DNA of 64,000 nt from Trichoplax sp. H2 (Eukaryota). Below, one piece after another: positions 1-43,645 of this stretch. Below the pieces are notes generated by a model. That model was given only the letters and a program-made list of their open reading frames with translations, ran no database searches and was not told the DNA's origin. Location: NCBI GenBank assembly GCA_003344405.1, contig NOWV01000147.1:1-64000 (forward strand). Direction: 5' to 3'. The number at the start of each line of letters is the position of its first letter. The stretch's first letter is position 1. The position numbers were made by a program, and so were the translations under genes.

Positions 1-2174
1 TAGTCTTGCTATGGTTTATGTGCATATGATTCTTGCGCTTTTTAACTTCCATTTGTAATTTGGCCATAACTTTTACGTCATTTCTAGCTGTATCAATAGC
101 TTTAATCTAGTGCTTACGTTCTTTTCGCCTTCTTTATTATTCACAGGTGACAATTCACGATGGGCATTTTAGAAGCTCTGAAGTAGCCTTTCATTTCCCG
201 CTAATTTATGAGATATTAACATAAATCGATTAACCGCATTGAAAAGTTTTACCGTAATTTGGCACGGAGATTAACTACAGCTAAAATATAAAAGAGCTTT
301 GATTCTCTACTAATTATTCGGATTATTAGTACGCATCAATTAGCTATATTGAAAATTTTTTATCATAATTAGATATCCAGTTAAACTACTATTCATCCTA
401 TAGTATATGATACTAAAGTAGAATAGTTATAATGTTATCCTTCCAGTACAATATTAATAAAATTTATTGACACTGCCTCTTTTCTCCTCTTGTATTGCTT
501 TCATATATTCTTTACTTAGCTCTTCATGATTCTCTTCTTGTTTTTGATCTTCTTGATTTTCTTGATTTTCTTGATTTTCTTGCGATTACTTATTTTCATC
601 ATCCTTCTCCTCTCCTGCATCTTCGCCCAATATCATAGATTGAATCATCTTCTCAGATCTTTTGTTGCCGATCCCATTTATTGCCTCTGTTAGTGATTTT
701 CTTCCATCAAATTTCAATGCGTAGTTCATAAAATCTTCTGTTAGTCGATTTAGTCTAGCTTGTGCACAAGTTCATCTTCTGCCATCTTAACCGAAAAGGT
801 ATATCTTATACCATCGAAATCATTGGAAGGTGGCCTTACCGAATGAAATACTGTACCTTGGGAAAGAGCACTCTGCCCATAACGTGGTCATACCTCTGTA
901 ATATAGTTATTATCATCATCAGCACTCTCAAAGTACGCAGTTTCTTCACCCTTTTGTGCAATCCAATTGGGATTTAAATAAGTTACCATCGTCCATTGAT
1001 CAGTAATCGATAAATAATCGCTATGCAATCGTCTATTAACGTTATTTCGAATCATATTACTTGAGACATCATAAGGGAAATAAATATCACGACTACCGAC
1101 ATGATTAACCACCTGCTGATGAATTTTCCATAAATTGCTATTTGCAAAATCTTGTACAGAGAAAATAGCCATCCATGATACACCGTCACTGCCGTCGTCA
1201 TGAATATATGTGTAGAAATATTCCTTGTATTTCACAAGTTTACGTAATCCTTCCAGTTCTTCAGGAGTAAATAAGTTGTCTAATACATAGATTTTTTTAC
1301 CATTTTCGCCAACATATCGTCGTGTAATATATTTCTCTACATCAATTACTCGATTTGCTGATACAGACGCGATATCATTTAACTTTGTGTTACGAATATT
1401 TCTTCGATGTTCAAATTTTTTCTTATAATATTCGATACCGTTTCGTAACTTTTCACTTGATTTAGTTAATTTAATATGGATTGTTTTGAGAGGATCGTAA
1501 CGATCTATTGCTGGAGGCTTATAAAGATGCTCGATCGATGAATCGAACATAACCATTCTAAAGGCAAGAGGATGGACAGCACTGACAATTTCGTTATTAT
1601 CATCATAGAATACAATATCGCCGTAATCATTCTTTTTCCATTTGCCTGTTAAATAGACGATAGCACTAACATCATCGTCACGAGATGGAGTATCAGTAGA
1701 TTTCTTTGGAATTTCAGATCTTATAACTAATTTAGCAGCGTCTTGATAAATATGATAGTCGTTACCTTGTTTATCGCCTTTAAAATGTTTTACAGCTCTA
1801 ATAAGTTTTTGACCGATCTTTGATTTTTCCATAAACTGAGGATCGAGAAATGTTTTCCATAAGATATGATCAGGGCTTTCTTCTTTATAATCGCTACCAT
1901 TATTATAGTTGTTAAGTGTCATTTCCCACTGTCCAAGACTGGATAAATATCGTCGGAACAGATAGATACTGAAAGGTTGTGTAAAGTTATTATATATCGA
2001 AATTTTTCGATTATCGGACGTATAGAATGAACGGTATAGATTTTCATCGAAGTCATCTCTTATTTTAGTTTCATCGGATTTTTTAGACTTTTTAGCGTCA
2101 CCAAATATCACAATAATAACAACTACGAATAAGTATATCCATTGATTTCTTATATTCCTAGAGAGACGAACCAT
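1..2174 (-). pseudogene. Pseudogene copy 1 of the secreted tandem 2OG-Fe(II) oxygenase family (runs off the window start)
   Basis: ORF 2174-888 is homologous to the three intact paralogs but stops at TGA 888-890 where they have Arg (EVRPRYG). Homology continues past it (PRYGQSALSQGTVFHSVRPPSNDFDGIRYTFSVKMAEDE), followed by a 5-bp frameshifting insertion (766-770), an in-frame TAA (586-588) and a GC at the expected donor (475-476). The exon-2 remnant (200 to <1; ..AHRELS..IKAID..MAKLQ) has two stops (169-171, 107-109) and a frameshift. Confidence 0.88.
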
Positions 2175-3972
2175 AATTGCATTAATGTGGTCCTCGTACG
2201 CGAAATAATTTCAGTAATTGCGTAGAATAACGATCTATGAAAATTGCAAACAAATAAAGCTTCTAAATGAAGTTTACTGCTTTGACGATAGCTTCTTTAT
2301 TCAATCATGAGTTTATGCAAAAGCTATTTTAAGCCCGGTAAAGATCTGATTATATACAGTACCGCAAGTCTTATGTACATTTATCACATATGACGATTGA
2401 ATAGAAAGTCCTCTATAAACAGGAAAGAGAAGGCGTTACTGGAAATTTTAATTACGATCTTTATGATGGAGGATAATGCGGCTTGAACGCTTATTTTCTA
2501 TCCCTAGTACCTTTTGAAGCGCTATAACTACAACAAAGTTAAATGGTGTATTAGGCTTTTTCTATGTCGCTCTTTTTCCTTAGGATATAAATCTACGAAG
2601 AACATCATAATGCCTAGCTACTATAGTTAAAATTAAATATATAATATCGTTTGATGGACGTTAGATTGTAAATAGGCCTATAAGATTACAAGGGCATAAT
2701 ATTGCTATCTCTTTTAGATGATCAATAAATAATGCCAAGTATACTCGTAGGTAATCTCTACCATTAGTGTAAGGGATAAACCCGCCTATATTTGCCCAAA
2801 CTAAGCTTACAGTTGATAAATATATAATTATAATCTAGTAGGTTAGATGGTAGATCATAACATTAACCCTTATCGATAGTTATTCAATGATATTAAATTC
2901 AGGCGAGCTCTATAGCCTGACGGTTATGCTTACAGTTAGTAAATTTAGGCATAATCAAAATCTAATCGATTAGACTATCTGATATAACATTGCTAATCCT
3001 TGCCGAGGATCGTCATGCATATTCTAATAATTTACTGTCGTATCAATCAAATTGGTTTATCCTTACTACTTACATAGAGAACGCCGGTAGTTAACCATTC
3101 GACTTTTATAATATACAAATTAGATAATAACACTGTATGCAACTATATCGTCATCAATTCTAATCAGCTGAAATAACTAAAGACGATTTCGCTGACTTTA
3201 CTTAATATTAGAGCTATACTTATCTTGAAATGGACTTTCATCAAGCATTTTCGATATTTTCAATAAGAATAATATGGAGATATTCAATTACTTATAAATG
3301 AGACCCGATAAAAGGGAAAGTAACAGAGAAGAATTCTTGTTGAATAAGTTAATAATTAAATCATGCTGGTAGATTTTCGAATACGTAGAGATGGTAACTG
3401 TGGCACTTTTTAACACACCTTCAATAATAATATAGAGAACTGTGATGGAATTGCCAAAGAGCGATTAAATTTGCCGAATTTATTGCCTATTGCATAATGG
3501 TGTGCCCTTTCATTGACAATATCTTGATACTAACGTGTAGTATTCACGTATAACAAATTGAATAGATGTATACTTGTAACTATTGCATAGTTCTGCTTTG
3601 ATGGATCTAGCTTAGGAAATTTCCATCAGTGAGATCATTTTCAGTAAATAGGATTAATGAAGACTGTTATTAGTCAAAATAGAAGATAACCTTAATACTA
3701 AATGAGTCATGTTTAAAAATGAGTCCTAGATACATGTTGATATTAGTTCATATATTTTAACAAATAGTATAATATACTCGAATACTTTACAAAGACCAAT
3801 ACAGTATTACGCTAGCTACCTTGACTAACAGCATCTATTATAATCAATTTCTATCATTCTAGATCTACAGAAAATCATTGCCTTGTCATGTTATACATAT
3901 ATCAATTTAACTTCTGTTTATCTATCGATTGATGGTATTAATTGCCAGCAGATTGTTTATTTAGCCTTCGAC

Positions 3973-6041
3973 CTATAAATGTTTACTAATTTGGTCTGCT
4001 AATTTATCGGCTGTTTTATATATCTTCATTTCTATGGAGTTTTGTAGCTTAGCCATCTTGTCTCCGTTATATCTATGCTTTTCAATTGTCTTAATTAATT
4101 TCAGGCGTTCTTTGGCACCTGCTTTATTTTCTATTTCAGGCAGTGATCGATGAGGATGACGATAGGCTTCCGCCAAACTCTCGAATTCTTCATCTAATAA
4201 GGAAAATAACACATCAGTAGGATGAAAGCAATGGATAAAATAGCTCTCTATAATGACCATAGATCTTAGCATAAGTTATTACGGCTTATCCATTAATCAA
4301 GAGCTTTGCAGTTTAAGAAAAATAAACGGTTATTTAGAATAACTTTAGACTAGAGTAAAGAATAAATACCTTTTGCTGCTTTATTTTGATTGTTGGTATT
4401 GCTCTCTTGTGATCGTTGATCATTTCCTTCACCAATTGCGTCTTGATTTTGTTCCTCATTGATATGGAAGCCATTATCAGTTATTAGTTCATCTTCATCT
4501 AAGAGCATACTTAAAGTACTTTTCTCCAGTTTTTTGGAGCCTAATTTGTGTGCAATTCTTTTAATGTAATCATACTGATCCACATTTCCTGCATAAATTG
4601 CATAATCTTCCGATAATCGATTTAATCTAGCTTGTGGTTCATCTTCTGCCATCTTGACAGAGAATGAATATCTTAAACCGTCGAAATCATTGGATGGAGG
4701 CCTTGCTGAATGGTAAATGGTACTCTGAAAAATAACACTTCGACCATAACGTGGCCTCACTTCTATCACATAGTCGTTGTCATCGGTATTTTTTTCGAAG
4801 TAAGCGGTTTCTCCACCCATTTGTGCAGTCCAATTTGGATTTAAGTAAGTTACCATTGTCCATTGATCAGCAGTTTGTGAGCAATCATCATGGACTCGAG
4901 TATTATCGGTATTTTTAATCATATTACATGAGACATCATAGGGGAAATAGGTATCACGACTGCCGACATAGCGAACCACTTGTTGATGGATTTTCCATAA
5001 ATTACTATCGACAAAGTCTTGTAGAGAGAAAGATGCTAACCATGATACACCATCGCTTCCTTTGTCAAGATAACTTTGATGGACATATTCCTTATATTCA
5101 ATAATTCGACGTAAGCCTTGTAATTCTTGAGGAGTAAATACGTTATCTAAGACGTAGATTTTTTTACCACTTTGGGCTACATATTGTCGTGTAATATGTT
5201 TCTCGACATCGATAGTTCGCGGCTGCGATAGAGGAGCGATATCGTTTAATTTCTTATTTCGAGCATCTACTCGATGTTGTGATCGTGCTTTATAATCTTC
5301 GATGGCTTTCTTTAATTTATCACTGGATTTAGTCAGTTTAATATGGATTGTTCTTACTGGGCCATTACTATCGATGGATGGAGGCTTGTAAAGATGTTCG
5401 ATGGAAGAATCAAACATGACCATCCTAAACATAAGAGGGTGAACACCGCATACAATTTCCTTATTTTTCTCATAGAATAAAATATCACCATAGTCGTTTT
5501 TCTTCCATTTGGTGATTAAATAGAGGATAGCGCTGATATCGTTATCATCAGCTGGAGCATCGATACTCCCTTTAGGCACTTCCGATCTTACGACAAGTTT
5601 AGCAGCGACATTATACATGTGGTAGTTATCACTTGCTTGATCACCTTTAAAATGCTGAACAGCGCGAAGGACTTTACGACCAATTTTACTTTTTTCAATG
5701 AACTCAGGATCGAGAAAGGATTTCCACAAGATATGATCAGGGCTATCGTCTCTAAAATCGCTACCATTATTATAATCTTTGAGTGTATGCTCCCATCGAC
5801 CAGCGTCGGACAAATAACGTCGAAGTAGGTAGACATTGGACGGCAGTAAAAAGTCATTATAGACCGAAATTTTTCGATGATCGGACGTATAGAATGATTT
5901 ATAGAGGTTGTGATCGAAATTATCCTTTTGCTCTTCACGATTGGATTTTTCCGAGTTGTCACCATTGCTAAAAGTGATTATCGTCATCGATAACAGTAAG
6001 CATAGGTATAAATTTCTGACACTACATAATAGAATTGCCAT
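3973..6041 (-). CDS. Secreted tandem 2OG-Fe(II) oxygenase (prolyl-4-hydroxylase-like, 2OG-FeII_Oxy_3-type) paralog 2; exons 6041-4370 and 4193-3973
   Basis: Hydrophobic N-terminal signal peptide. The C-terminal domain has VHDD...YLNPNW..GGET...YHSARP...RYS (HxD...H plus 2OG Arg). The N-terminal domain has SAILYL..W....YGD..FY...MVMFDSSIEH. A phase-1 GT-AG intron (AAAG|gtattt ... ag|ATGAAG) joins a helical exon 2 ending QISKHL*. Confidence 0.88.
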
Positions 6042-6142
6042 AGTTCTTAGGGTATTTTTGTACTCCTTCTTGAAGATTTTTATTCGAGCTCGTTTATATG
6101 TCCGAGATATATACTGTAATTATTGAAGTCTCCGTAGTAGTA

Positions 6143-6480
6143 AAGGCAAGTTAAGGCAACGCACCAAACACTTCTCGATATGTATTGATCCTTATTGAAG
6201 GAAATTCAAGTTTCTTTACTCAAGGCAAGTTAAAGCAAGGCACCAAGGGCGTCTCAATGTATACTGATCCTAACAGAATAAAATGGAAATTTCCGTAGCC
6301 AATGGAGCTTCTCAATCTGTACTGATCCTTGTTGAATAAAATGGAAGTTTCTCAATCTGTACTGACCCTTATTGAAAAAATGGAAGTTTCTATAATCAAT
6401 GGAGCTTCTCGATCTGTACTGATCCTTATTGAAGAAAATCCAATTTTCTCTGATCAAGGCAAGTTAAAGTAACGCCCCAG
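6143..6480. repeat. Compound minisatellite upstream of oxygenase paralog 2
   Basis: About 5 copies of the core ctc(a/g)atctgtactgatccttattgaa interleaved with 3 copies of aaggcaagttaa(a/g)g(c/t)aa. Confidence 0.8.
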
Positions 6481-8530
6481 GAGCTTCGAAATATAGAATC
6501 CTCGTACAGTCATCAACTGAATAAACAGTCGACGACCGATTTACAATTAATCTCCTTAGCTGTTTAGGTCACGTAAAATCAACTTGATATCGCTCAACCT
6601 ATAAAGAATATTGAATAGTATAAGATCCTTTAGAGGTAAGGGAAAAGAGGCGCTGATTCTAATTCTACGCTAGCTAAGTGGTTGTCTGTACCCAACATCG
6701 ATATTATACTACAATACAAAAGTCTATTTTAGAAATATAAAGCCTATAATTATTATAATGAATTCTTCTTACTGCCTATTGAAATGGTAATGCCATTGAT
6801 TTTATTCTACTGCCTATTAATATTAGGCATGATAGACAATAACGCAAAAGTTAACATCACGTATACATCGGAATGAATGGAATTAGATCTAGTTTGACCA
6901 GTAGCTCCTACGTGATGATGAAAATAATACTCTGGAATAAAAATATATATACTACCTATGTTTAGTCTTTAACTCTGCTATAGTAAACGTAATTCTCATA
7001 GTTCTTTAACGGCTATTTTAGTGGTTTACTGCTTGCCACAGGTGTCATAATATCCATTCAATCAACGCCATGTTGGCATCCAGTTTTATTGGTAATAGAG
7101 TTATGACTGCCTCAAGTTCATACATTCAGTCGAAATAGTTCTTTCTATCAGGATTGCTTAACCATTCCATGACAGATTGAAAGAACTTTCGACGTACAGC
7201 CGTAGTAAACTTGATTAATTCAGTTTGCAAAGGAGAGTTTAGTGTGCACAGTCAAAATAAATATTAGGTAGAAACGATTGCCGTATATGGATACTACAAG
7301 CGTTTCCTTGAAGAGAATTAATATCGATTGGATAATAAAGACGATAGCCTCCCAAGGAGCTATTTACAAATTTCCATTGGAAATGATTCTGAGTAGAAAT
7401 TACTACTAAATAAGATTTTTATAATTAGTGTTGGACCCACTGTAGCCATTGAATGCAACTAAATTCGTTTTTAATGCTGTTCCTGTGAATTATTTACCGT
7501 TCATTTCAATATGGCAGGGGTTATTCTATAGCTTACTCTGAGTAAATGAGGATGCAAGATATCGGCTAGTAAGCTCGTAAAATAAACATTCTAGATGATT
7601 ACATATTGACAGTAAGTGAGCTGCCAATGAAACAGATATTAGCAATTCCCTCTAAGTTTCGATGTCATAATTCAAACGAGTGGATGTCAGAGAATAGTAA
7701 TTAAACTCTCTGTTAGATATAGATCCTAACAAATGGGAGTTAGAGAGTAGTAATTCAACTCCTCGTTAGAAAGGGGTTCGGATGATTGCAACGAAGGAGT
7801 GACAGAGAGAACAAGTCTTGATCGTTATTGAAATCATATCATTTCATAAGCATGATATTCAAGTTTCTTTTTATAAATCCTTGTCATCATTGTCTTACTG
7901 AGAAAATTGTTTGGATCGCTTGCCAAGTGCTAAAAATCATTCACCATTTTCCATTGCTAATATAATTATAGATAGTATAATTTATCGCCAATGATTTTAA
8001 AGGGTGATATGATATCTTGAAGTACTAGGCAAGAAGGTGAGAAATATTGAAGGAGTAGTTAGAAGATAGATTCCGTTGCACGAACAGAATAGATGACTAC
8101 AGCAAACTAGATATTTTTAATAAAGTAGAAGAGCAAAAACCAATCAAAGAAAGGTATGGAAAGGATGAAGATGGCAAAAGTGCAACCTTGGACAGAAATA
8201 CACTGTTTAGAATGCTATATTTATTTCGAATAAGAATATGAAAGTTAAACAGCTGTTATAGTGGTATACACACAACACTACATTACATTACTTTCAGCGA
8301 TATTATTAGTAGCAAATGAGATTATTACCACCAATGAAAAGTCGCTTAAATCTATAGCATCCAATTGATTGTATTGGATTGAATGTTAATTCCGCAATAT
8401 GAAACAAAATAATGATAAAATTGTAATAGGAATGAATAATTATAGTAGTCGTTATTTCCTACTGGATCAACTTGGGCTACAAACTGGATTGTGAAAGAAT
8501 CATAAAGTAGAGCTGGCATAATAGATAAAT

Positions 8531-10675
8531 TTATAAATATGGAGCAATTTGAGCAGAGACTTTAGCATAGGAATTGTGCATATTCTCTTCTAAGGAGTTT
8601 TGCAATTTAGCCATGATTTTACCGTTATCCCTATGCTTATCGATTGTCTTGATTAACTTGGCTCGTTTTTTAACGCCATCTTTATTGGTAACCTCGACTA
8701 ACTTTCGATGAGGATTGCGATAATCATCCAGCATATATTCAAGTTCCTCTGTAATGAATTTGTAATATGGCGTCAAGAGATAGAATCAGTGTAATGATGG
8801 AATACTCTATGACTACCGAATTTACTTCCTTATAATCGACTTTAATTTTATTTTAGAACGGGGTTACTAATGGAAAGTAAAGCTATAACACCTTGGCACA
8901 CTGTTCTAGACGATCACCACCATGAAAATATATTTAATTATTTCTACTCTACTCTAATAATAATGAATTAAGCCATTCATGCTCAGCATATTCACATTGA
9001 CAAGTTGAATGGACAATTTACCTTCTTCTGCTTCGTCTTCAACAGATTGATCCTTTTGAGCTGGTGATTGGTCTTCTTCCTCTTCATCTTGATATTGCCC
9101 TTTACCTCGCGTTTTGCCTTCTCCTTCGTCATCGACCTGGGGCGCATCTTCGCCTAACAACATACGGAGAACCATTTTCTCTCCTTTTTCCGTCCCCATC
9201 ATACGTCCAATTCTTGTCACACTATCACGCAGGTCAATATTTCCAGCATAAATTGAAAAATCTTCCGTTAATCGATTGACTCGAGCTTGTGCTTCGTCTT
9301 CTGCCATCTTAACCGAAAAGGTATATCTTAAACCATCGAAATCATTGGCTGGCGGCCTTGCTGAATGATAGAGTGTACTCTGGAAAATAACACTTCGTCC
9401 ATAACGTGGCCTGACTTCGGTAATATAAAAATTATCGTCGATATTTTTCTCAAAGTAAGCCGTTTCGCCACCCATTTGTGCAGTCCAATTGGGGTTCAAG
9501 TAGGTTACCATCGTCCATTGATCAGCTACTTGTGAACAATCATCATGGACTCGCGTTTTATCATTACATCGAATCATATTACATGAAACATCATAAGGGA
9601 AATAGGTAGTGCGACTACCAACATGGCGAACAACTTGTTGATGGACATTCCATAAATTGCTATCGACAAAGTCTTGTAGCGAAAAGGATGCAGCCCAGCT
9701 AACACCATCACTTCCTTCATCGAAATTACCATCATGATCGTAGCGCTTATATTCGATGAGTTTGCGTAAATTTTTCAGCTCTTCAGCAGTATATAAATTA
9801 TCCAGGACGTACATTTTTTTACCATTGGGGGCCGTATAAGTTCGTGTAATATGTTTATCGACATCGATGACTTGTCCTGCTTGTATTGGAGCAACTTGGT
9901 TTAGTGTTTTTTCACGAGCTTGGGATCGAAGTTGTGATCGAGCTTTCCATTGCTCGATAGCATTATTGACTTTCTCCTTGGATTGAGTTAATTTAACTTG
10001 CAAGGTGATAACTGGGCCTTCATGATCGACCGAGGGAGTTTTATATTGATGCTCGATAGAAGAATCAAACATGATCATGCGAAATATAAGTGGATGAACA
10101 GCACCGATAATTTCCTTGTTGTTATCGTAAAATAAAATATCACCATAATCATTTTTTTTCCATTTACCTATTAAATATAAGATAGCACTGACATCGCCAT
10201 TACCCATTGGTGCATCTTGACTGCTTTTTGGGATTTCTGATCTTGCAATTAATTTTGCAGCAACATGATAGATCTGGTAGTCATTGCCTTGTTGATCGCC
10301 TTTAAAATGTCTAACAGCTCGTATGATTTTTTGACCAATTTTGGTTTTGCCAATGAATTCAGGATCGGGAAAAATTTTCCACAAGACATGATCAGGACTA
10401 TCTTCTTTAAAATCACTACCGTTATTATAATCGTTCAGTGTAACTTCCCATTGGCCAATGGTGAATAAATAGCGTTTAAGTAAGTAGAGAGAAGTGGGTT
10501 TTAAAAAGTTGTTATAGATGGAAAGTTTTCGATTATCCTCTGTGTAAAACGACTTGTACAAATTGGTATCGAAATCATCCTTTTCTGGGACATTTTTACT
10601 TTTGCTTGATTTCTTACTATCGTCGGCTGAGATTAGGATAGCGCAAAGTATCAAGAGACCGATTGATTTTCGCAT
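8531..10675 (-). CDS. Secreted tandem 2OG-Fe(II) oxygenase paralog 3; exons 10675-9022 and 8748-8531
   Basis: Signal peptide MRKSIGLLILCAILISA; VHDDC...YHSARPP...RYTF motifs; acidic linker; same phase-1 intron (GAAG|gtaaat ... ag|AGGAAC); exon 2 YRNPHR...MAKLQ...QIAPYL*. Confidence 0.88.
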
Positions 10676-10746
10676 CCTGTTGACAATCGTTATCTTGGAT
10701 AATCACTAGAAAAGGGAACGGAAACACAATTTTTCTAAATTGTACT

Positions 10747-10763
10747 TTCTCTCTCTCTCTCTC
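10747..10763. repeat. (CT)n microsatellite about 70-90 bp upstream of the paralog 3 ATG
   Basis: Run of ctctctctctctc seen directly. Confidence 0.7.
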
Positions 10764-13020
10764 AATTACAGATCAAGTAGAAATAGTGTAGTACTCTGGA
10801 CAACTGTATACCAATAGTTCAATGGATTAAATTGAAGGAGCCAATCTGCCTCTATGTGTCCTTTTAATAGACAATCAATATTAAACTTTAACGACTCTTT
10901 TTTAATAGGCAACTTTACGTCATAACGCTAACAACAGGTCGTTACTTCGCAATTATGAGAGAAAGAATTGATGTCGGTAGCTGGAATGGAGTACAATATT
11001 GAATTGTTTTACTATTATGGGGGATTGCCTATTGACATAATAATGGAGGCTTGCACTAATTGCAAAAAGTCACGCCTTCATAAGGCATTGAAGAAGAATA
11101 GTAAGAATATTATTTAAGCTATCTTATAGTTTTAAGACAAATTGAATAGACATGGTGTACAACTACTATAAGAGATCAAATATTGATCGAAGCTTAGACG
11201 TAGGACAACATTGTTGTATAGGAAATTATAAAGAGAGGATAGAAAATGAATATCAATAAATGATCCGTGGGCTAGCTATGACAACATGGATTGCCTTGTA
11301 ATTAAGTCTAGTCTACGAGTACTCGTATCCTAAGAGGAAAGGGATTGATGATGCAATTCTTGCTGTTGGTTTGGGTAGATGGAGGCTGAGATAATGGCTT
11401 CCATCATGGTTTATAAACTATACCAAGATAGGCCATCTTGAGACGGTAGAATAGTACTGAAGGAGAGGCAATATTAAGCATAGCAAAACGATATACTCAT
11501 ATATACGTAGAAGAAAACTTCCCATAGGTAGTATCTACTGTACTCTTCAACCGAAATAATTTACTTAATTGAATAAGCTAGTACTCCAAATAGGATGAGT
11601 AGATTATCATTATTACTCGTATTTGTCAACTTGCCTTTTAAATGAACGGCCCCCCAAAATGCATACTATGCCGGTGCTAGAAGTAGTCAATCAATTGTAA
11701 ATTATAGGAATCATTACAGCACGTTTTTCTATAGTAATTTTCCTACATTATAGATCGATCTTATGTTAACTACGGATACGCCTTAACTCATAAGATTGCA
11801 TTGAATTTATGGCATATTTAACTAAGAAAGTGTTATACTTAAGCAATGAGTTCACTCCGTGAGTAACATTTATAACTGATATTTATCGTTAATGTTCCGT
11901 ATTTCTAGCTACATCAGGTTACACCTCGATACGATTATGATTTATACTTCGCACTACAATTAGTAAATGATCAGTTCACTTTTTGCAATCTACAGTATTA
12001 CAAGCTGTAGTTCAGCCCCAAATATAACTTGGATTACGATCCAAGATTGTACAAGAACAGGTTAAAAATTGTACGTTCGAGTGTAAGATTGTATTAAGTA
12101 TCTATTTTAGTGAATCTAACTACAGTAATTATATAACAGAAAGCAACTATAACGGACTGTTTTATTCTTACCCCATAATGTAAGAAGTAGATCTATATGC
12201 ATATAAACACGACCGATAGATCGGAATCATTAATTAAATGAACAATAAGAAAAATATCTGCTGTGCCAGTACTGAATCTCTCTATATTGATATCTACAGT
12301 ATGGCTAAAACCTGAATTCCGGCAATGTATGATAGCCGGCTAAAGTTCGAATTAGGAGTGCACATCGTCCTATAGTTTAAGAACGACTATTTACTTAATA
12401 GAAAGAAAATCAACTCCGTTTAGTCCTTTCGCATACTGCATTGCTAAACACTTCCGTAAAGCAATAAAATCGATTAATCTGATTAGCATTCTACTTCAAG
12501 CATGAGTATCGCCGGCTAAAGCCCTAAAATCGAATATTTTTGCTTTTCATATCACTGTTCTACTACAGTAGTTCAAAGGACGAAGGACTAAATCTATCGC
12601 AGACTAATGCAGCTTCAATAGCTTATCCATAATTTATAAATGATTTATGCTACTGATCTACGTAGTTTCTTGCTACGATTCAACAGTACAAGGTTCGGCT
12701 AGTATACACTGACGACCAATCCATAACAAGATTGCCGAAATCAAGAATTCTTTATTGGTACCAAACCCACACATATACACCACTCGATGGTAAAGCATCA
12801 AGTGGTTCCTTGCTTACACACAGTTATCCTATTTATCAATCGCTATACTAAATCTAAGCTAACTAGGGATAAAGTTACTAGCTAGTAAAGAATAACTTAA
12901 TAATTAAAATAGTCCAAATTTAAATGATTTACAGTAAAAATGCGATGGCATGATTTACGTAAAATGAGCATCAACATCAGTAAGGTTATAAATACTACTA
13001 AAATGGAATACTATTTATCC

Positions 13021-15029
13021 TCATTGAAGACACTGACTAATTAACTCTATACGTTTTTGGTACGAATTACTTAATTTCTTATCCACAATATCTTGCAATT
13101 TTGCCATCTTTGCCGCATTATCCCTGTTTTGATCGATGATCTTTATCAACTTTTTTCGAAACTTTAGAATCGCTGGATTTTCCGATGTTGTTAACCTTCT
13201 GTGAGGACTACGATAATCCTTCAGCATCGCTTCAAATTCATCTAATCAATGAAAATCAATTCAATTAGACAAACATGTTATAGAGCCCTTCCCCCACCCC
13301 CCCAAAAAATAATAAATTGCCAACTTTTATTGTAAATGAGAAAGTGCATTGCTTTAAAACAATCCAGTAGTTGTGTTCGCGTTAATTTGAATCCCATTTC
13401 TTATATCATACCTTTTGCTATGGCTTCTGCTTCTAAAGAATCTATTTCATCCGATGGGTAGTCGTCCTCTTCTTCTTTTTTGTTTTCATTAGGACTTTCA
13501 TCATCTTCTCCTAAAACCATATCACGCATCCTTTTTTCTACTTTATTAGATGCTTTCCGAGGTAACGTGTCTCTTATTGTGCTTAGTACTTCCATATTTC
13601 CATTGTAGAAATCAAAATCCTCGGATAATCGATTGAGTCGAGCTTGTGCTTCATCTTCCGCCATCTTAACCGAAAAGGTATATCTTATACCATCGAAATC
13701 ATTGGACGGTGGTCTTGCTGAATGATAGATTGTACTCTGGAAAATAACACTTCGTCCATAACGTGGTCTTACTTCAGCAATGTAGTTACTATCATCGGTA
13801 TTTTTCTCAAAATAAGCCGTTTCTCCACCCATTTGTGCAGTCCAATTGGGATTTAAATATGTGACCATCGTCCATTGATCAGCAGCTTGTGAACAATCAT
13901 CATGGACTTTTGTTCTATGGTTATTTCGAATTAAATTACATGAGACATCATAAGGGAAATAAGTAGTGCGGCTACCAACATGTCGAGCAACTTGTTGATG
14001 AATTTTCCATAAATTGCTATTTACAAAATCTAGTACAGAGAAAATAGCCATCCATGATACACCGTCACTACCATCGTCTTGCATATCTGCATAGAAATAT
14101 TTTTTATATTCCACAAGTTTCCGTAATCCTTCCAGTTCTTCAGGAGTAAATAAGTTGTCTAATACATAGATTTTTTTACCATTTTCGCCAACATATCGTT
14201 GTGTAATATGTTTCTCTACATTGAGTACTCGATTTGCCGATACGGGTGCAATATCATTTAACTTTGTGTTACGAATATTTCTTCGATGTTCAAATTTTTT
14301 CTTATAATATTCGATACCGTTTTGTAACTTTTCACTTGATTTAGTTAATTTAATATGGATTGTTTTGAGAGGATCGTAACGATCTATTGCTGGAGGCTTA
14401 TAAAGATGCTCGATCGATGAATCGAACATAACCATTCTAAAGGCAAGAGGATGGACAGCACTGACAATTTCGTTATTATCGTCATAGAATACAATATCGC
14501 CGTAATCATTCTTTTTCCATTTGCCTGTTAAATAGAAGATAGCACTAACATCGTCGTCACGAGATGGAGTATCAGTAGATTTCTTGGGAATTTCAGATCT
14601 TGTAACTAATTTAGCAGCGGCCTGATAAATATGATAGTCGTTACCTTGTTTATCGCCTTTAAAATGTTTTACAGCTCTAATAAGTTTTTGACCGATCTTT
14701 GATTTTTCCATAAACTGAGGATCGAGAAATGTTTTCCATAAGATATGATCAGGGCTTTCTTCCTTATAATCGCTACCATTATTATAGTTGTTAAGTGTCA
14801 TTTCCCACTGTCCAAGACTGGATAAATATCGTCGGAACAGAAAGACATTGGAAGGTGGTGTAAAGTCATTATAGATCGAAATTTTTCGATTATCGGACGT
14901 ATAGAATGAACGGTAAAGATTTTGATCCAAGTTATCCTTTTGATTTACATTCTCGGACTTTTCGGCGTTGCTAACCGTAATGACAGTGCAAATAATAAGT
15001 AGAAATACACACGCCAATAACCTTTGCAT
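13021..15029 (-). CDS. Secreted tandem 2OG-Fe(II) oxygenase paralog 4; exons 15029-13412 and 13241-13021
   Basis: Signal peptide MQRLLACVFLLIICTVITVSNA; VHDDC...YHSARPP...RYTF; intron AAAG|gtatga ... ag|ATGAAT; exon 2 YRSPHR...MAKLQ...ISQCLQ*. Confidence 0.88.
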
Positions 15030-15439
15030 CCTAATTCTCGATATAGCTATTAACCTGTTGCTGGCAATTATTTATGGATTAGTACAGGTATGAAGTACTA
15101 AATATCGTGGATAGTCGAGCTGACAAGATTGTCGGGAAGGAAAGTAAATCAAGTAAAGGTGTAAATTTATCGTCAGTTGTGATTTTAATGTTTCCTATTA
15201 CATATACCATCGGATATGCGTAAATGAATAGGCACGTAGCTATAATAATTATATATATAATAGACATACGCATAATAATTAATCTATTCATGATTGATTA
15301 TCTATTATGATACGCGTATAATTGTTTAGAATAATTCTAATTCTATTGGAATTCAGTTAAACTTCGAAGATCCTAATCAATGCATGTTGGCTATTCCACT
15401 TTAATTACCATTGATTTAGTAGTATGCTATTGATTTGTT

Positions 15440-31830: not shown

Positions 31831-32329
31831 TAGTTTTACCTACAATTCTAATCAATCAATCAACTATATACCGTGTATATGCTACGCATACAGTTATCCA
31901 TTTGTAGTCGTAGAGCAGTAACACTGTCCAAGGGATTCTCTACACGATATCACCAGTAGTACACAGTATCAATAATTATAATTAATAATTCTATGGTTGC
32001 TTCTTGGAGGCGGATCATTAATTATGTAAGCAGCGATGGCATCAATACTGTATTGATCCTTTAGCAAAATAATAGCGATTCAACATTGATTGCCAAAGCC
32101 TTGACTAAAACTACTGCTTCTCACTAGTGCATAAGACAGTTTTTACAATCGAAAGAAATGATACAGCAAATTATACCACTGTGTATAGAGATGACTCAAG
32201 AGCCATCTTGCCTTGTCTCCTATTAAGGGGAAATAGTCGTCACTGCTGTGGAAATACAACCTATTCAATCCAAAATAAAATTAGTCTAGCGCAAAATTAC
32301 ATTGAAATCGATCCTTCTATCGAACAACG

Positions 32330-33673
32330 ATGAGTTTATTGATTCAATTATCCGTAGCTATTGCATTCTTACTACTCAATGGCGTCATTGATGGATCCAA
32401 TCCGGGTGATAGTGATGAAGTAACTGCATTGCCAGGACTGTCGATTCCTTTACCTTTTAAACATTACTCCGGTTATTTACAGGGTGTTGATAGCAATACT
32501 CAGTTACATTATTGGTTCGCTGAATCTTATGGTAATCCTGCAAGCGATCCTTTAATATTATGGATGAACGGTGGTCCTGGTTGTAGTTCATTGGATGGAC
32601 TACTAACCGAGCATGGACCTTTTAGTGTCAATGATGATTTAACCATTTCTTTACGTAATACTTCGTGGAATAAATTTGCTAACGTCATCTATCTTGAATC
32701 ACCAGCAGGTGTTGGATTTTCTTACGGACCATCGTCCAATTTATCGGATATTACAACGGCAGAGAATAACTACGCTGCTCTTAAAGCATTCTTTAAAAAA
32801 TTTCCTACATTCGCCAATCATGACTTCTACATTACAGGCGAAAGTTATGCTGGCGTTTACGTTCCTACGTTAGCCACTCGTGTTGCTAATGATAGTACAA
32901 TCCGATTAAAAGCGATTGCTATTGGCAATGGCATTCTAGACAGGACTAAAAATCTCGATTCATTAATGTATTACGGTTACTATCACGGCCTATTGGGTGG
33001 CCAACTATGGAATGGCTTGCAAGTTGCGTGTTGCAGTGGCAGTAGCTGCCAATATGCAAATAGTAATAATTTCCTATGTTCTCATCGAGTTCGCTCTGCT
33101 ACTAATTTAATTTGGGGCGATGGCCTAAACCTGTATAGTATCTATGAGGATTGTTTAAAAGTTCGACAAACTTTAGCCATTAGAAATCATCTACAAGACT
33201 CTAACCAACCTCTTTATGGAACCCCACCTTGCTTTACAGAGAGTATACTATCCAAATATTTAAATAGCGATGCAGTTCTGAAGGCGTTACATATTGCCAA
33301 GCAGGCTCCAAAATGGACGATCTGTAATTTTATTGTCAACCTCAATTATCAAAGGACCTATCCTTCTGTTATCCATTTCTTAAAGAATCTGTCATCCAAA
33401 ATGCGCGTCTTATTATATTATGGCGATGCCGATGCTGTGTGCAATTTTATAGGTGGACTTTGGAGTGCTGAAGCAATCCAAGCCCCCAAAATCGACGACT
33501 ATAAACCATGGTATATTAACACCACATACGGCAAAACAGTTGCAGGTTTTATACAGCGATATGATAACCTCGATTTTGTGACTGTTAAAGGAGCTGGACA
33601 CTTAGTCCCAACAGATCAGCCTGATGCTGCCTTTCGACTGATGGAAACTTTTATAGGCGGTCATAGTTTATAA
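32330..33673 (+). CDS. CTSA: Serine carboxypeptidase, peptidase S10 (cathepsin A / lysosomal protective protein-like), intronless
   Basis: Signal peptide; HYSGYL, LHYWFAES, WMNGGPGCSS, YLESPAGVGFSY; catalytic GESYAG (Ser), GDADAVCN (Asp), KGAGHLVP (His). Confidence 0.93.
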   Translation: MSLLIQLSVAIAFLLLNGVIDGSNPGDSDEVTALPGLSIPLPFKHYSGYLQGVDSNTQLHYWFAESYGNPASDPLILWMNGGPGCSSLDGLLTEHGPFSVNDDLTISLRNTSWNKFANVIYLESPAGVGFSYGPSSNLSDITTAENNYAALKAFFKKFPTFANHDFYITGESYAGVYVPTLATRVANDSTIRLKAIAIGNGILDRTKNLDSLMYYGYYHGLLGGQLWNGLQVACCSGSSCQYANSNNFLCSHRVRSATNLIWGDGLNLYSIYEDCLKVRQTLAIRNHLQDSNQPLYGTPPCFTESILSKYLNSDAVLKALHIAKQAPKWTICNFIVNLNYQRTYPSVIHFLKNLSSKMRVLLYYGDADAVCNFIGGLWSAEAIQAPKIDDYKPWYINTTYGKTVAGFIQRYDNLDFVTVKGAGHLVPTDQPDAAFRLMETFIGGHSL

Positions 33674-34309: not shown

Positions 34310-35786
34310 TAGTTTATTGTACATTATTTATGTGACTTAGCATACACATTGCATGGACTTTTCCATTAACTTTCCTGATACGAAATTCATCAATGGACCT
34401 AACGATATTCCCTTTAATTAATTTATTAAATAATTATAACGGCTGAGAACAAACTGTAGCTGATAGGTCAATTACATAATTTATGTTCATATTATCAATT
34501 ATTCTATGTACAAGTATTTAAAGTTATTTTCTGTAGGTATCTTGGCTTTGTTAGTTAGCATTGCCAATATGTGTATATCTTACTATTCAGAGTTCAATCA
34601 AGGAATAAATGAAAGATTAAGACTAATCGGTGCATCAGATTTAAATTACTAATTGATCAATTTTGTGAAACTCGTTCATGAAATATTAGAGCACAGTATG
34701 CTAACGTCTTCAGTCAACGAAATTTTAAATCCTTATTGGTTTTAGTTCATGGAAATGTCTCGTACAGTTAAAAATTCAATGAAACGGGATACGAACATGT
34801 CATGTCTATGGATTAAAACATTTTGTTTACTAACTATACGCATAAGTGCACTTCCTCTACAGTAAGTAAATTAGCTGTAGACTCTGCAGTACTACAGTAG
34901 GTAGTTTTCGAGCGGAGAAGTACAAAAATACCTCGTATAGCTCTACAGTATTGTCAAATCCTACAAAGGTAAACACGAAGCCGATCCAAAAGTTAAAGAG
35001 TAAAAATGCAAAGTTTTATTGCATACAGCCAGTACACTACCAAGGTAAACATGATTATAACAACAGTCACTGAGCAGCAAATTTACAATGTAATTTTAAA
35101 CTTACCAGCTAAAACAGAAGGTCCATTTCCAGCCAACCTATAATTCTAAAATTGTCGCGCTAGGCAGTCGGCTGCAATAAGAGCACAGTCTACTACAGTC
35201 TGCTGCAAGCACTATGCATGTGAGTCAAAAGTTGCCATCGCCGCTTGCTGCAATTTTTGCATTCCTGAAGGTGGAATAACTTCTGAATAAATAAATAAAC
35301 AAAACAACATTATTAGATGATGCTTATAATGATTAGCCGAAAGATGGAGGATCTGGGTGCAAGTAGCATACTGTAAATACAGCGCCATACCTCTTGATCC
35401 AGAGAGATCGGTGTCTTTGATCTTATCTCTGGGGCTAAAATCTCTATTAGTGCTAGGCTTTCCAAGGGTTATGCAGACTTGAAGACGCTAATGTTGAAAT
35501 TGATTAGACATTTTGGCAGAGTACTGTACTGTACTGTACACGAGGACTACTAAAGAAGGCATCGTAATAATTCCAGCTGTACAACTACAGTGTCCATGTG
35601 CGACAAGTCCTTCCATTTTATCTGATGCAAATAAGACAAGTAAGAAAAATTCTCATCAAAATTTGAAAACAGATCTAATATTATTATGATTATCATTACT
35701 AGTTGATAGTGATATATATTCTACTGGATTTCGCTTGCCATTGCCTAATTTGCAATTGTTTACCTGATATAGTTAAAAGAAGCATT

Positions 35787-36680
35787 ATGCTTACACTTTC
35801 AGCGTTCTTGCCTGCAACTTTAACAACGATCATTGCCTGCACGACAATTTTGGTAGTTGTCATCACTTGCTATGTGCAGTCACGACCAAAATGGACAAGG
35901 CCTTGTCCTCCAAAGAAAGAAAATTACGATGTACAGCAAGGCGTTGTATTGCTATTTCAACTGGAGCGGAACTGCACTGTACCTAGTCTAGCGGCTTACG
36001 TTTTAAAACTTGAAACTTATTTACGTATGGCCGAAATCCCGTATAAAAATGATCATAGCTTTACTTTATCCAGTAAAGGTAAAGTTCCTTGGATTATTGT
36101 TAACGGCAAAGAAGTTACGGATTCATCATTTTGTATTGAATACTTGAGTCAGGAATTTGATAAAGACCTGGATAAAGGCTTGAATGAAGAAAGTAAAGCT
36201 GTTGGTCGAATGTTAACCAAAACGATGGAAGAGAATACGTTTTGGGCCACCATTGAACAAGCCAGACTCTATGATGGCTTAGACGAATGGTTGGATCTTG
36301 TAGATGTCAACTCGTCAATGCGATCCTTCTTCAAAAATCAAGGCCCAAAAATCGTGAAAGAATATAGTTGGGGACATGGCATAGGAAGGCATTCCTCGCA
36401 AGAAATACATCATATAGGTGAATTGGACCTACGATCCTTTTCAGTCATTCTTGGCTCTAAGAAATACTTCCTTGCTGATTATCCCACTACGGTTGATGCA
36501 TGCATGTTTGGATTTTTGGCAAATATGCTATATGCTGTACCCAAATCGTCCCCATGCTATCGTTTGTTAACTACGGAATTGACAAATCTTGTGGATTATG
36601 TCGAAAGAATGAAAGCAAAGTATTGGCCAGATTGGGAAGAAATCACCAGCAGGGCACCTAGAGGTAGTCTCGGTCACTGA
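35787..36680 (+). CDS. FAXC: Failed axon connections homolog (metaxin/GST-fold protein with N-terminal membrane anchor), intronless
   Basis: First ATG at 35787; hydrophobic N-terminus; PSLAAYVLKLETYLRMAEIPY, SSKGKVPWI..NG..VTDSSFCIEYL, GHGIGRHS, LGSKKYFL..YPTTVDACMFG, YVERMKAKYWPDW are typical of the FAX family. Confidence 0.85.
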   Translation: MLTLSAFLPATLTTIIACTTILVVVITCYVQSRPKWTRPCPPKKENYDVQQGVVLLFQLERNCTVPSLAAYVLKLETYLRMAEIPYKNDHSFTLSSKGKVPWIIVNGKEVTDSSFCIEYLSQEFDKDLDKGLNEESKAVGRMLTKTMEENTFWATIEQARLYDGLDEWLDLVDVNSSMRSFFKNQGPKIVKEYSWGHGIGRHSSQEIHHIGELDLRSFSVILGSKKYFLADYPTTVDACMFGFLANMLYAVPKSSPCYRLLTTELTNLVDYVERMKAKYWPDWEEITSRAPRGSLGH

Positions 36681-39900: not shown

Positions 39901-40151
39901 AAAATTGAAAAATGAATGACAGCTAAGAATGTTATTGTCGTGAACAATAATGGTGATGAATAAATTGAAAGTATTGTCTTTTTTAATTATAAGTTTTACT
40001 TCTATCTATCTATCTATAGTTTATAGTCGAGTAGGCGATGTTAAATTGTTTAAAGTCAATAAAAGCTTAATACCGAGATTGATTTTTTTCATCTATCGAT
40101 CAACGAACGACTTGTTGATTGTAGCCGTATCTGTAAAACAGAATACAAGTT

Positions 40152-43100
40152 ATGTCGAGTTTCTATCGTTTCATGACAACTGTCCTTGTGGCAGTAATCC
40201 TATCTAACGCGCCATACTGTCAAGGTGATAATGATGATCATCCTCGAGGACATTTCGACCGCCTTGGTAGCCACATTGATTCTGATGGTCATGTCGAAAT
40301 ATACGATGAAATCCCAACAGCCCAAAAGTTTTGGGAAAAGCACGTTCGACATAGGTTACCAGCCGTATTTCGTGGCGCAGCTAAAAATTTTGAAGCTTTC
40401 AACTTGTGGACAGATGACTATTTAAGGAAAAATTATGGTGACCTCGAAGTAAAACTAGAAGCAAAAGCAGAAAAAAAAAATGTACCTATTGGAACTAAAG
40501 GCAAAGGAAGGGATACCATTGCCGATTTCTTGGACAGCTATGTCAAGAAAGATTCTTATATCGTCTCACAATTGCCTGATCCGATGTCTCCTGAAATCGG
40601 TGTTTTACCTTGTATAACCTGTGGTTCTTTTAAAAATCGCATCTTGGAAGCTAATTTATGGCTCAGTAGTGGTGGTACTAAATCTCTCCTTCATAAAGAT
40701 GCAGGTAAAAAAGTTAAGCTATCGATACAAGGTTACTATCTTTCAATTTTTCTAGTCGAAGTTTTATTTATTGAAACTGAACTTTCCAATTAAAATATTT
40801 AGTTGATTAAGGTAAATTTCAAATTGTCAACTCCTTTTTTGGTGCTCGGTGCCATAACGCTTAGTTTAGAAGTAAAGCTAGAAAATTTTAGCCTAACTTA
40901 ATGTTACCATACTATAAACGTATAAGCTGATAATAGCAGCGATTTCTCATTCGCCATGACCTTATAGCCGTTTATGTTAAGATCGATGTTTAGTATCCGC
41001 TAAATTAGGCACTTGAGACATTTAACAGCTTCATAGATATTCTCTATCATAGACTTTTGTGGAATAGAGTTCGAACTGAAAACCTACATTTTACTTTGCA
41101 ATTTTTCAATTTATAAACGCTACCTTGACTCTTGAATAGCGAATAAAGATAATTTATAATAAAAATCTATACTTAGTACTTGTTCAAAGTATGCTACGAT
41201 ATGAATTGTTAGCATCTTTATAATGATATTAATTCAATGTTATTCATACACGGGAATGAATAGACAACGCTATTAATTGCCTCCTGAATGGAACCAAAGA
41301 TTGGCTTTTAATCCACCCTAAATACGAAAAATTCATTCCAATGGCCAAAGAAGCCAAATCAGAAGTTGGCGGATTCTCCACTATTAACGTGGATAAAGTC
41401 AATATTAAAAAATATCCTAACTTTAAGAAAGTCCATTACAACCATGCTAATCTATCACCAGGAGATTGTTTATACTTGCCTTATGGTATGTCAGCTAGTT
41501 GAGCTTTAAATAAATCTTTCTATTCACTTTATTCCACTATGGGAATATTGAACTCATTTAACCGAAAATGTCGATTAATTTAACTTGGTTATGTTCGAAA
41601 ATAGATTTGTTTATGGTAGAGAGATTTAAGCACTTCAATGACCATAGTTGTTGATTAAATCAAAATGAAATTACGAAGAGGCTAATAAGGTTTAAAATAT
41701 TATGTGTTCAACTAGCTTATTTGCATCAAGTTCGATCTTATGGCTCGAAAAATATGGCTGTTTCTGTACTCCTTGCAGCCGGACTCACTCACGAAAAGAC
41801 TTTTAATAATGAGGATTGTGAATCCAAAGACTACAAAGTTTTTCCAAAACTGACTGAAGTCAACATGGTGTGGACTTATCCAGGACATGGTCCACAAACA
41901 CTAGGTAGCATGGATCCAATGGAACTGAGGTAAATTTGTTTCAATATTATTAAACTAGAATAATCTACTTGCGTTGATAATAACTAGATGCAAAATAATA
42001 CAAGCCTATGGCAGGTGTATTATTTCTGGATAGTCATGATATTCTACAATCTTCATCAATCTTGTAAATGCTTTTAAATACAAAATACAACAGGGATAGC
42101 ATTTTGAAACTCTTTAAGAAAAAGGATAAAGTGCCGAGCGACAGATTCTTGCAAGAAGTTACAGCTGTAAGGAATCAAAAATAATCATATAAGATCAATT
42201 TTGTTTTAAACACAAAATGACTTTGAAAGAATCTTAGTTAAGCTGGATATTTTTTGCTGCAGATGGATGATGAAGAAGATGAAGGTTCCGGCATGATTAA
42301 AATTCAACATAAAGCTGTAAGTCCTTATTAGTGTAATATTATTAGAGTAGCAAAGTAAAGGCCCGTTCATAATAAATAACCAATTGATGACCTCTACTCC
42401 AGATGCTATAAAAGTAATCATTTCTACTTTGGATAAAATTTTAGTATACAAAACATTTTGGGCTGGATAAGAAAAAATATGTAACTGCAGAAGAGGTTAA
42501 TAAAATTCCATTTGAGCAATGGAAAGCATTAGCTGTTGATATGGATCCCGATCCAGCAAATACAGAAGAATATGAATACGCCTTATTTGATGTTAAGCAA
42601 TTTCAGTATGGCATAGAATTAACTATATAGCATTTTGATATTGAAGTAACGATATTCACACCCACATCTAGGAAGTTTAAAATAACAAAATAGCCACTCG
42701 TGTCTGTAATGTTTACACGAAATGGTGATTCTACTACAGGAATTTACTTATTTTTCTCTCTCTCGCTTTCAATGTAAATAGAAACGTTGTACGGAAATCT
42801 ATGAACCAGAAAAGTGGAGAATTAGATTCTGAAAAGTTTATTAAAAATTATATGGTAGACAATTAAAAATTACATAAGAAATTTTATTGCCATCCCTCAG
42901 TAGCTATACTCGTATATGTGTAAATCATAATTAATTAGTGATCAATTATACTTTTTTGAAGATGTTATTATAGTATTGATGTTTAACTAGAGTAGTATCA
43001 TAGAAGACAGTAACAGCTTTATATCCACTTTTGTTATAATCTTACTATCATTGCTATGATAAATTTATAGTACTTTTCTTTTTTTAAATGTAGAAAATCG

Positions 43101-43645
43101 GTGGTTCGGAAAAGATTGCAAATGATGTAAGTACTAAGACAGTAATTAATTTCACAAAGAATTAAAGTGAACATAGATTATGTGAGCTTACTTATAAATA
43201 CCGAGAAAATACGATTTCGATACGGATATAGTATGATAATCTTTTTCAATTTTAAATAAAGTTGAAAAGCTTAAGATGTTAACAATTTTAATGCAAGTAG
43301 CTAAACAAGCTAATCGTTAATTGCGTTTATGACATGTAGCTGCTGGAAAAATTCGACAGTAACAACGACGAAGTTATTGACGGGAATGACTTGGAGAAAA
43401 CTGCCGAAAAGGTTCTCAGTCTTTTTAAAGAACATTCTATGCCCCCAAAGAAGGTCGAGGTTAAAGATGAAGACTATCTCAGAGAAGAAGCAGAAACAGA
43501 AGAAGAAGGATTACCAGGTGATGAAGGAGATGATTTGATGGGTGATGAATCGGAGGGCGAAGGTGAATATCGTGAAGGCGAAGAACCTGAGGAAAGAGCT
43601 CCAAGAGATGATGATGAAAACAGAGATTATCACGATGAACTTTAA
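40152..43645 (+). CDS. ER-luminal JmjC (cupin-8) protein with EF-hand, acidic tail and HDEL; paralog A, 9 exons
   Basis: Signal peptide; FWEKHV..RLPAVFRGAA, LWTDDYL, NLWLSSGGTKSLLHKDA|DNAINCLLNGTKDW, GDCLYLPY|AYLHQVRS (HxD...H plus Lys). Exons 40152-40704, 41264-41485, 41716-41929 and six more with GT-AG borders. EF-like loop DSNNDEVIDGND; ends DYHDEL*. Confidence 0.87.

Follow-up and report, generated by a model that had tools for sequence, protein, structure and literature searches.

In the part of the OGFOD1 paper available to us (PMC4396695), the hydroxylases of ribosomal protein uS12 were the sole 2-oxoglutarate (2OG) oxygenases with tandem double-stranded β-helix (DSBH) domains known at the time (2015); the N-terminal domain of OGFOD1 is catalytic, the C-terminal domain is without a metal site, and the two halves are 12% identical to each other. 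Here, a window of 64,000 nucleotides of Trichoplax sp. H2 DNA (contig NOWV01000147.1, positions 1 to 64,000, assembly GCA_003344405.1) was analyzed, and four long open reading frames (ORFs) were found on the minus strand within positions 1-15071, referred to below as genes A, B and C and copy D. In the intact genes, a signal-like N-terminus is followed by two DSBH modules of approximately 190 residues, an acidic linker and a helical tail encoded by exon 2. On the evidence of sequence and predicted structure, the paralogs of the array probably belong to an as yet unnamed family of animal Fe(II)/2OG oxygenases that enter the secretory pathway (lumenal or secreted), in which a dead N-terminal module (N-module) precedes a live C-terminal module (C-module).

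The window is AT-rich (GC 0.30-0.38), and the three intact genes span 3973-6041 (A), 8531-10675 (B) and 13021-15029 (C). The joined coding sequences gave products of 630, 623 and 612 residues, respectively, each with a single terminal stop. Their annotated Trichoplax counterparts are P0001 (TRIADDRAFT_57489), P0002 (TrispH2_008815) and P0005 (TrispH2_008816), and further family members were found in Trichoplax beyond the window (TRIADDRAFT_57485, TrispH2_007332 and TrispH2_007335). RNA-derived contigs were taken from four runs in two studies, three of the runs being on record as RNA. The intron was removed in 4/4 runs for C, 4/4 for B and 1/4 (X5) for A, and the introns of all three genes have GT..AG ends on the minus strand (CT..AC on the plus strand for C). 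These findings show that, of the four copies, A, B and C are transcribed and spliced.

Each of A, B and C was found to match the Pfam family PF13640 in two stretches (E 3.4e-16, 4.6e-14 and 3.8e-18; 53.6-66.7 bits compared to a gathering threshold of 27), and PF13661 likewise. The isolated N-halves matched PF13640 in all four copies, with a best E of 1.5e-6 and, for gene C, 28.1 bits against the cut-off of 27. When a 17-sequence alignment of the family was split into halves and the halves were compared as profiles with hhalign, they matched each other with a probability of 100 and an E of 2.5e-40 over 188 aligned columns at 18% identity. In gene C numbering, this comparison paired Ser151 with His376, Asp153 with Asp378, His208 with His436 and Lys222 with Arg449. 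These findings show that the protein arose through the internal tandem duplication of one PF13640 DSBH module of approximately 190 residues, in agreement with an earlier reading of the DNA letters (the original prediction) that had placed two DSBH repeats in each paralog.

The modules were compared at their metal sites. In the N-module, the motifs at the expected HxD position are STD in C, SQD in B, SID in A and STD in copy D, and SSIEH is present in 4/4 copies; the C-module of A, B and C has HDD, YHSARPP and R449. Across the 17 aligned sequences H376, D378, H436 and R449 were invariant in 17/17, and none of the metal-ligand positions of the N-half was invariant. A full HxD...H triad was found in the N-module of 0/45 homologues of the first search, and the C-module H, D and H were found in all 44 that reach the distal histidine; P0004, the shortened product of copy D, ends earlier. 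A wider set comprised 98 sequences of at least 400 residues, near-duplicates included. In it, a full N-module triad occurred in 0 of the 89 sequences covering the site and a C-module triad in 94 of the 95 covering it, the exception being P0085 (H-N-H). At the level of sequence, these findings show that the C-terminal copy retains the metal and 2OG ligands, which in gene C are His376, Asp378, His436 and Arg449.

The remnants left in the N-module were found to vary with lineage: Trichoplax has S-D-H; hemichordates, a starfish and Nematostella have H-D-Y; sponges have H-H-Y; amphioxus has Y-N-Y; and corals have the distal histidine alone. Since these remnants are lineage-specific, the ancestral N-module probably had a complete metal site, and this triad would have been lost more than once. 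The predicted S-x-D in the N-terminal repeat was found in every copy, and part of the triad is lost in all family members covered. The distal histidine, which had been described as kept, is present in all four copies but is limited across the family to placozoan and coral members. Similarly, the full HDD...H...R set ascribed to the C-terminal repeat is found in A, B and C but not in copy D, which has HSD.

Among A, B and C, the ratio of nonsynonymous to synonymous substitution rates (dN/dS) was 0.13-0.21 in the N-module, 0.14-0.19 in the C-module, and 0.23-0.63 in the interdomain linker, post-DSBH helices, acidic stretch and tail, values that are rough because the paralog dS (0.76-1.6) is near saturation, but clear in direction. 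As judged from codon substitutions, these findings show that purifying selection acts on the dead N-module no less strongly than on the live C-module. The same figures bear on the possibility that the protein in its entirety is a pseudoenzyme or serves in binding, with the C-module motif kept and no productive 2OG turnover. Such an explanation would fit the H-N-H of P0085, but it is at odds with the H-D-H in 94/95 sequences, the retention of Arg449 in full-length members, the C-module dN/dS, and a GGET...PHSARPP block that shows little or no variation between sponges and chordates in the 17-sequence alignment. We give it little credence.

A full-length AlphaFold AF2 model of gene C, made from the 17-sequence alignment, had a mean predicted local distance difference test score (pLDDT) of 83.4 and a predicted template modeling score (pTM) of 0.80, and its order of strands and helices was equal in residues 38-253 and 275-490. 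The C-module of the model (residues 270-459) superposed on the Pseudomonas prolyl 4-hydroxylase (P4H) 4j25 with a Z of 16.9 and a root mean square deviation (rmsd) of 3.1 over 167 aligned residues, and matches to an algal P4H, TaPHD (the Trichoplax PHD), PolD and PHD2 were tied at Z 16.0-16.6. The N-module (residues 31-229), searched with a second aligner independent of Foldseek, matched the Dictyostelium PHD DdPhyA (6t8m) with a Z of 14.8 and an rmsd of 3.6 (179/202 aligned), followed by EasH, P3H1, LH3 and AlkB at Z 13.3-14.0. In an independent ESM Atlas model, both halves had template modeling (TM) scores of 0.82-0.88 to PF13640 proteins of approximately 185-190 residues, and residues 35-232 reached a TM of 0.87 to one of 189 residues. 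Taken with the hhalign result, the DdPhyA and ESM Atlas matches uphold the DSBH fold proposed for the N-terminal half. The exon-2 helices lie at residues 531-611 of the gene C model (block pLDDT 83-94), and structural alignments with PHD2 continue into residues 550-577. The exon-2 tail matched no Pfam family, and its ESM Atlas look-alikes all had a TM <0.4.

Sequence relations to solved proteins were weak. The best matches of the family profile in the PDB were a Phytophthora P4H (E 5.1e-4), TaPHD (0.0027) and PolD (0.0045), and the prolyl hydroxylases of hypoxia-inducible factor (HIF; EGLN/PHD) gave a weak profile match (E 0.0027-0.08) and a fold Z of 15.4-16.6. The families closest in sequence to the repeat unit were phrog_274 (E 6.6e-31) and NF052475, named "FlmC family 2OG-Fe(II) oxygenase" (E 9.1e-26), each matching in two stretches; P0001 scored 91 bits against NF052475, whose curated cut-off is 240, and is not a member. 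In terms of sequence, then, the closest relatives are single-domain PF13640 oxygenases of approximately 190 residues, and the term "prolyl-hydroxylase-like" in the original prediction describes a resemblance of fold.

The names of these two families were also considered. In the part of the source available to us, Caulobacter FlmC is cytidylyltransferase-like and no oxygenase (PMC7591256), and no paper was found with "FlmC" and "2OG" together; the NCBIfam name was dropped as a functional lead. The family phrog_274 is labelled "DNA endonuclease V", and it matches P0172 (E 1.8e-21), as it does P0001, over the whole length; the label looks wrong for the PF13640 members. At a Pseudomonas locus, one of the two found for a stand-alone relative, the neighbours were a GNAT acetyltransferase, an MFS transporter and an HMGL-like gene, which was uninformative.

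Entry into the secretory pathway was judged by a hydrophobic-run heuristic, an uncharged run of at least 8 residues within the first 45. Such a run was present in 37/45 homologues, and the other 8 include gene models without the N-terminal region. The Trichoplax runs end in small residues (VSNA/EK and ISA/DD), ends that would be typical of cleavage sites. The sequon NWT was found in 32/45 homologues and NGS in 12/45, the latter mainly in placozoans. No xDEL C-terminus was found among the family members. Collagen P4H alpha is without a KDEL of its own and is held through protein disulfide isomerase (PDI). As far as these features go, secretion, residence in the endoplasmic reticulum (ER) via a partner, or a signal anchor are all possible. 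Of what had been predicted, the acidic linker, the helical exon 2 and the lack of xDEL were confirmed, and the signal peptide holds as a signal-like hydrophobic N-terminus, recognized by the run heuristic only. The two sequons described as conserved are present within the array as NGS in 4/4 copies and NWT in 3/4, but copy D has NWI.

Several observations weigh against reading the array as secretory-pathway oxygenases of this kind, among them the near-saturation of dS given above. The N-module folded alone, from an alignment of 4 close paralogs, gave an unusable model (pLDDT 36.2, pTM 0.21). Cys364 and Cys379 were both present in 41 of the first 45 homologues, both missing in 3 and single in 1 (44/45 concordant), but among 97 sequences of the wider set 58 had both, 29 a single one and 10 neither. 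The pair was therefore dropped as support for a disulfide or an oxidising compartment. Alternatively, the hydrophobic stretch could be a membrane anchor or serve no targeting, leaving the protein cytosolic or nuclear like OGFOD1 and the PHDs. The failure of the cysteine pair to covary in the wider set and the lack of an ER-retention motif are in line with such a location. However, the short hydrophobic run followed by polar residues in 37/45 homologues, the putative cleavage-like ends in Trichoplax and the frequency of NWT argue for the secretory pathway, and we consider a non-secretory protein quite improbable.

The remaining points against concern the substrate. By sequence, the nearest relatives are single-domain oxygenases that are themselves uncharacterised, which leaves the substrate class wide, and the nucleoside-antibiotic enzymes PolD (9blq; Z 16.0-16.2, rmsd 2.9-3.1) and PasI (9ei7; Z 15.1) tie in Z with the prolyl hydroxylases. 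With the same architecture, the live module might thus oxidise a small molecule or glycan, such as a nucleoside, a sugar or a secreted metabolite. PolD is also the best solved sequence match of the C-module (E 0.0045-0.015), and the closest sequence families, phrog_274 and NF052475, have no assigned substrate. Against this, the top-ranked fold matches are peptidyl-prolyl hydroxylases, and a dead docking module in cis would suit a macromolecular substrate better. Moreover, the animal lumenal 2OG oxygenases C-P4H, P3H, LH, AspH and P4H-TM act on proteins. A small-molecule or glycan substrate is therefore regarded as unlikely, though it deserves more weight than a pseudoenzyme or a non-secretory protein.

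A profile search against 1.84 billion representatives yielded 1591 matches at E<=1e-3, of which 525 reached E<=1e-10 and 94 reached E<=1e-30. Organism names were given for approximately 18 of the 45 proteins of the first search and for 19 of the 30 clusters of the wider search. The named members belong to Porifera (Sycon, Corticium, Oscarella), Placozoa, Cnidaria (Nematostella, Rhopilema, Sanderia, Acropora, Montipora, Oculina), Echinodermata (Strongylocentrotus, Apostichopus, Patiria, Acanthaster, Amphiura, Antedon), Hemichordata, Cephalochordata (amphioxus) and Tunicata (Ciona). Vertebrates and protostomes were not among the named matches, although this does not prove that they lack the family. 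When shorter homologues of the C-module were sought, one Trichoplax fragment only was obtained (P0087). Four further proteins (P0075, P0076, P0083 and P0084; 719-825 residues) are Ala/Gly-rich and have two modules, with a signal-like N-terminus and a tail that is acidic; their source may be GC-rich eukaryotes outside the animals, in which case the duplication would predate animals.

All named members were labelled "uncharacterized", "hypothetical" or "predicted", or had automatic domain names, one of them the JGI auto-name "Tpa1-like". No description of the family was found in the literature by locus tags, accessions or wording on two DSBH domains and an inactive domain, a search that does not reach supplementary tables (e.g. 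of single-cell atlases), which may list the genes. A full-text search for "tandem DSBH" gave the OGFOD1 paper alone (PMC4396695), and broader searches, as judged from listings and abstracts, gave only papers dealing with PHDs, with OGFOD1 or with further 2OG oxygenases. By these names and searches, the family joined no characterised one, in keeping with its description in the original prediction as undescribed.

If the array does encode secretory-pathway oxygenases, the C-module would bind Fe(II) and 2OG and hydroxylate its substrate in the ER or Golgi lumen or extracellularly. The substrate would most likely be a protein side chain, with proline as a first guess, given that prolyl 4-hydroxylases rank best among the fold matches. 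By analogy with what has been proposed for OGFOD1 and its dead C-terminal domain, the N-module may act as a non-catalytic partner in cis, for substrate docking or as a scaffold. In the model, the acidic linker and the exon-2 helices would pack on the catalytic module at the location of the C-terminal helix of PHD2. A more far-reaching proposal is put forward tentatively, as possible but doubtful. It holds that the family is a second, independent tandem-DSBH architecture of the animal secretory pathway, in which a live oxygenase stays fused for good to a decayed copy of itself, this copy being a docking or reader module for the hydroxylation of secreted or matrix proteins from sponges to tunicates, lost in vertebrates and protostomes, and whose N-module had a full metal site in the ancestor of animals and was inactivated separately in several phyla.

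If real and active, the family would add to OGFOD1 a tandem-DSBH architecture with the order reversed and in another compartment, and would suggest that early-branching animals and invertebrate deuterostomes have an oxygen-dependent modification in their secretory pathway that is yet to be explored. It would also offer a clean natural example in which enzyme and pseudoenzyme copies are fused, and the phylum-specific triad remnants could be useful for studying the retention of dead domains.

The features of the array are listed in Table 1.

Table 1. Features of the oxygenase array in the Trichoplax window (positions of the whole window)
Feature	Position	Strand	Details
Copy D	2-2174	-	STD 1686-1700 region, SSIEH 1527-1541, HSDY 1014-1025, TGA 888-890, 5-nt insertion 766-770
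Copy D exon-2 remnant	2-106	-	runs past window edge
Gene A exon 2, helical tail ending SKHL + stop	3973-4193	-	RNA joint 4193->4370
Gene A exon 1	4370-6041	-	SID 5553-5567 region, SSIEH 5394-5408, HDDC 4881-4892, YHSARPP 4695-4715; identical to P0002
Gene B exon 2, helical tail ending APYL + stop	8531-8748	-	RNA joint 8748->9022
Gene B exon 1	9022-10675	-	SQD 10208-10222 region, SSIEH 10049-10063, HDDC 9536-9547, YHSARPP 9350-9370; identical to P0005
Gene C exon 2, helical tail ending QCLQ + stop	13021-13241	-	RNA joint 13241->13412
Gene C exon 1	13412-15029	-	ORF, PF13640, RNA contigs; 99% identity to P0001
Gene C helix + acidic linker	within exon 1 (13412-15029)	-	
Gene C live C-DSBH	13650-14222	-	HDD 13896-13904, His 13722-13724, Arg 13683-13685
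Gene C dead N-DSBH	14334-14933	-	STD 14571-14579, His 14406-14408
Gene C signal-like N-terminus	14964-15029	-	exon 1

In copy D, the first half with the N-module is intact, and the second half has an in-frame stop (AGA to TGA) and the 5-nucleotide insertion. It also has changes at otherwise invariant sites: HSD for HDD, GEET for GGET, and FHSVRPP. These findings show that copy D is a pseudogene in this assembly, and the array thus consists of three live genes and one dead; the predicted array of paralogs holds in this form, with A, B and C intact and copy D decayed. No RNA contig covered positions 1-2028 (copy D) in the four runs, which was not used as evidence. When copy D was compared to gene C (888-2174 and 13650-14933), identity was 94% with a dS of 0.06 in the N-module and 76% with a dS of 0.36 in the C-module. 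This mosaic points either to a chimeric origin or to gene conversion in the first half. A separate RNA-covered piece (2029-2535) lies just upstream of the start of copy D, with the same loose end at 2504 in 4/4 runs. At gene B, the RNA contigs over exon 2 extended approximately 870 nucleotides past the stop codon (7660-8531) in one piece, as either a long 3' untranslated region or a neighbouring transcript.

Elsewhere in the window, a second tandem array was found at 40137-43645 on the plus strand and at 45124-48489, 49864-53359, 56130-60150 and 61986-62462 on the minus strand, comprising at least four oxygenase-like paralogs and one cut at the window end. These genes have a signal-like N-terminus, a Cupin_8 (JmjC-like) domain across exons, an EF-hand-like DxDxDG stretch, and acidic tails ending in HDEL, LDEL, RDEL or HEEL; from these features, they look like ER-resident cupin/JmjC proteins. 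A single-ORF serine carboxypeptidase with a signal-like N-terminus (Peptidase_S10, E 6.7e-127) was found at 32306-33673 on the plus strand, adjoined by a GST_N_4/GST_C_6 (FAXC/metaxin-like) ORF at 35703-36680 on the same strand.

When the family was compared to known oxygenases, the stand-alone PF13640 proteins of approximately 190 residues (phrog_274, NF052475 and the metagenomic P0168, P0172 and P0174) were found to share HxD...WGGET.F...H..RPPS...R.T.A.K over their whole length. They differ from the Trichoplax proteins in being single domains with a full triad and without a signal sequence or tail, and come mostly from metagenome contigs. The single-domain P4Hs (PHD2/EGLN1, TaPHD, DdPhyA, Pseudomonas PPHD, CrP4H and vCPH) gave the best fold match for each half (Z 14.8-16.9, rmsd 2.9-3.9), and share with the C-module the HxD...H...R ligands and a YLNxxW...GGE motif. 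In contrast, their sequence relation to the family is weak (E 5e-4 to 0.02 when the profile is run against the PDB), they have one domain with neither a dead partner nor an acidic-helical tail, and all except CrP4H and vCPH are cytosolic.

The ER-lumenal 2OG oxygenases (collagen P4H alpha, P3H/leprecan, lysyl hydroxylases and P4H-TM) resemble the family in their putative secretory entry and in a catalytic DSBH placed C-terminal to a non-catalytic region, with fold matches of Z 13.9 for C-P4H-II (7zsc), 14.5 for P4H-TM (6tp5), 13.6 for P3H1 and 15.6 for LH3. They differ in that the non-catalytic region of the Trichoplax family is a decayed oxygenase module; P4Ha_N, TPR, glycosyltransferase and EF-hand domains were not in the Pfam lists at E<=1 for A, B, C and D. 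The separation from collagen P4H alpha made in the original prediction is borne out by the missing P4Ha_N and TPR, and that from OGFOD1/Tpa1 by the comparison that follows.

OGFOD1, Tpa1p and Ofd1 are the nearest in plan, with two DSBH domains per chain, one catalytic and one metal-free, an acidic disordered stretch and a prolyl-hydroxylase-type fold. A divergent or rearranged member of that family would account for the auto-name "Tpa1-like" and for Foldseek, which put Tpa1 and OGFOD1 at the top for the whole model (E 4.3e-11 to 1.4e-9 over 490-584 columns). However, these matches had a TM of 0.20-0.31 and an rmsd of 18-24 Å, and the second aligner superposed the two domains of the predicted model on OGFOD1/Tpa1 poorly as well (rmsd 16.9 Å over 342-355 residues). 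In the model, the domains match those of OGFOD1 singly and not as a pair. PF10637 (Ofd1_CTDD) had no Pfam match at E<=1 in A, B, C or D, and the family profile matched 49 PDB sequences at E<=1, none of them from OGFOD1 or Tpa1. Moreover, the Trichoplax family is dead-then-live, compared to live-then-dead in OGFOD1, and begins with a signal-like N-terminus, whereas the OGFOD1 family is intracellular and acts on uS12. Membership of the OGFOD1/Tpa1 family is accordingly viewed as extremely improbable. The halves of the Trichoplax proteins are plainly duplicated, compared to the low identity between the OGFOD1 halves, and are far more alike than either is to any solved protein. This favours a separate duplication, and sequence comparison thus points to a duplication that is the family's own and not derived from OGFOD1.

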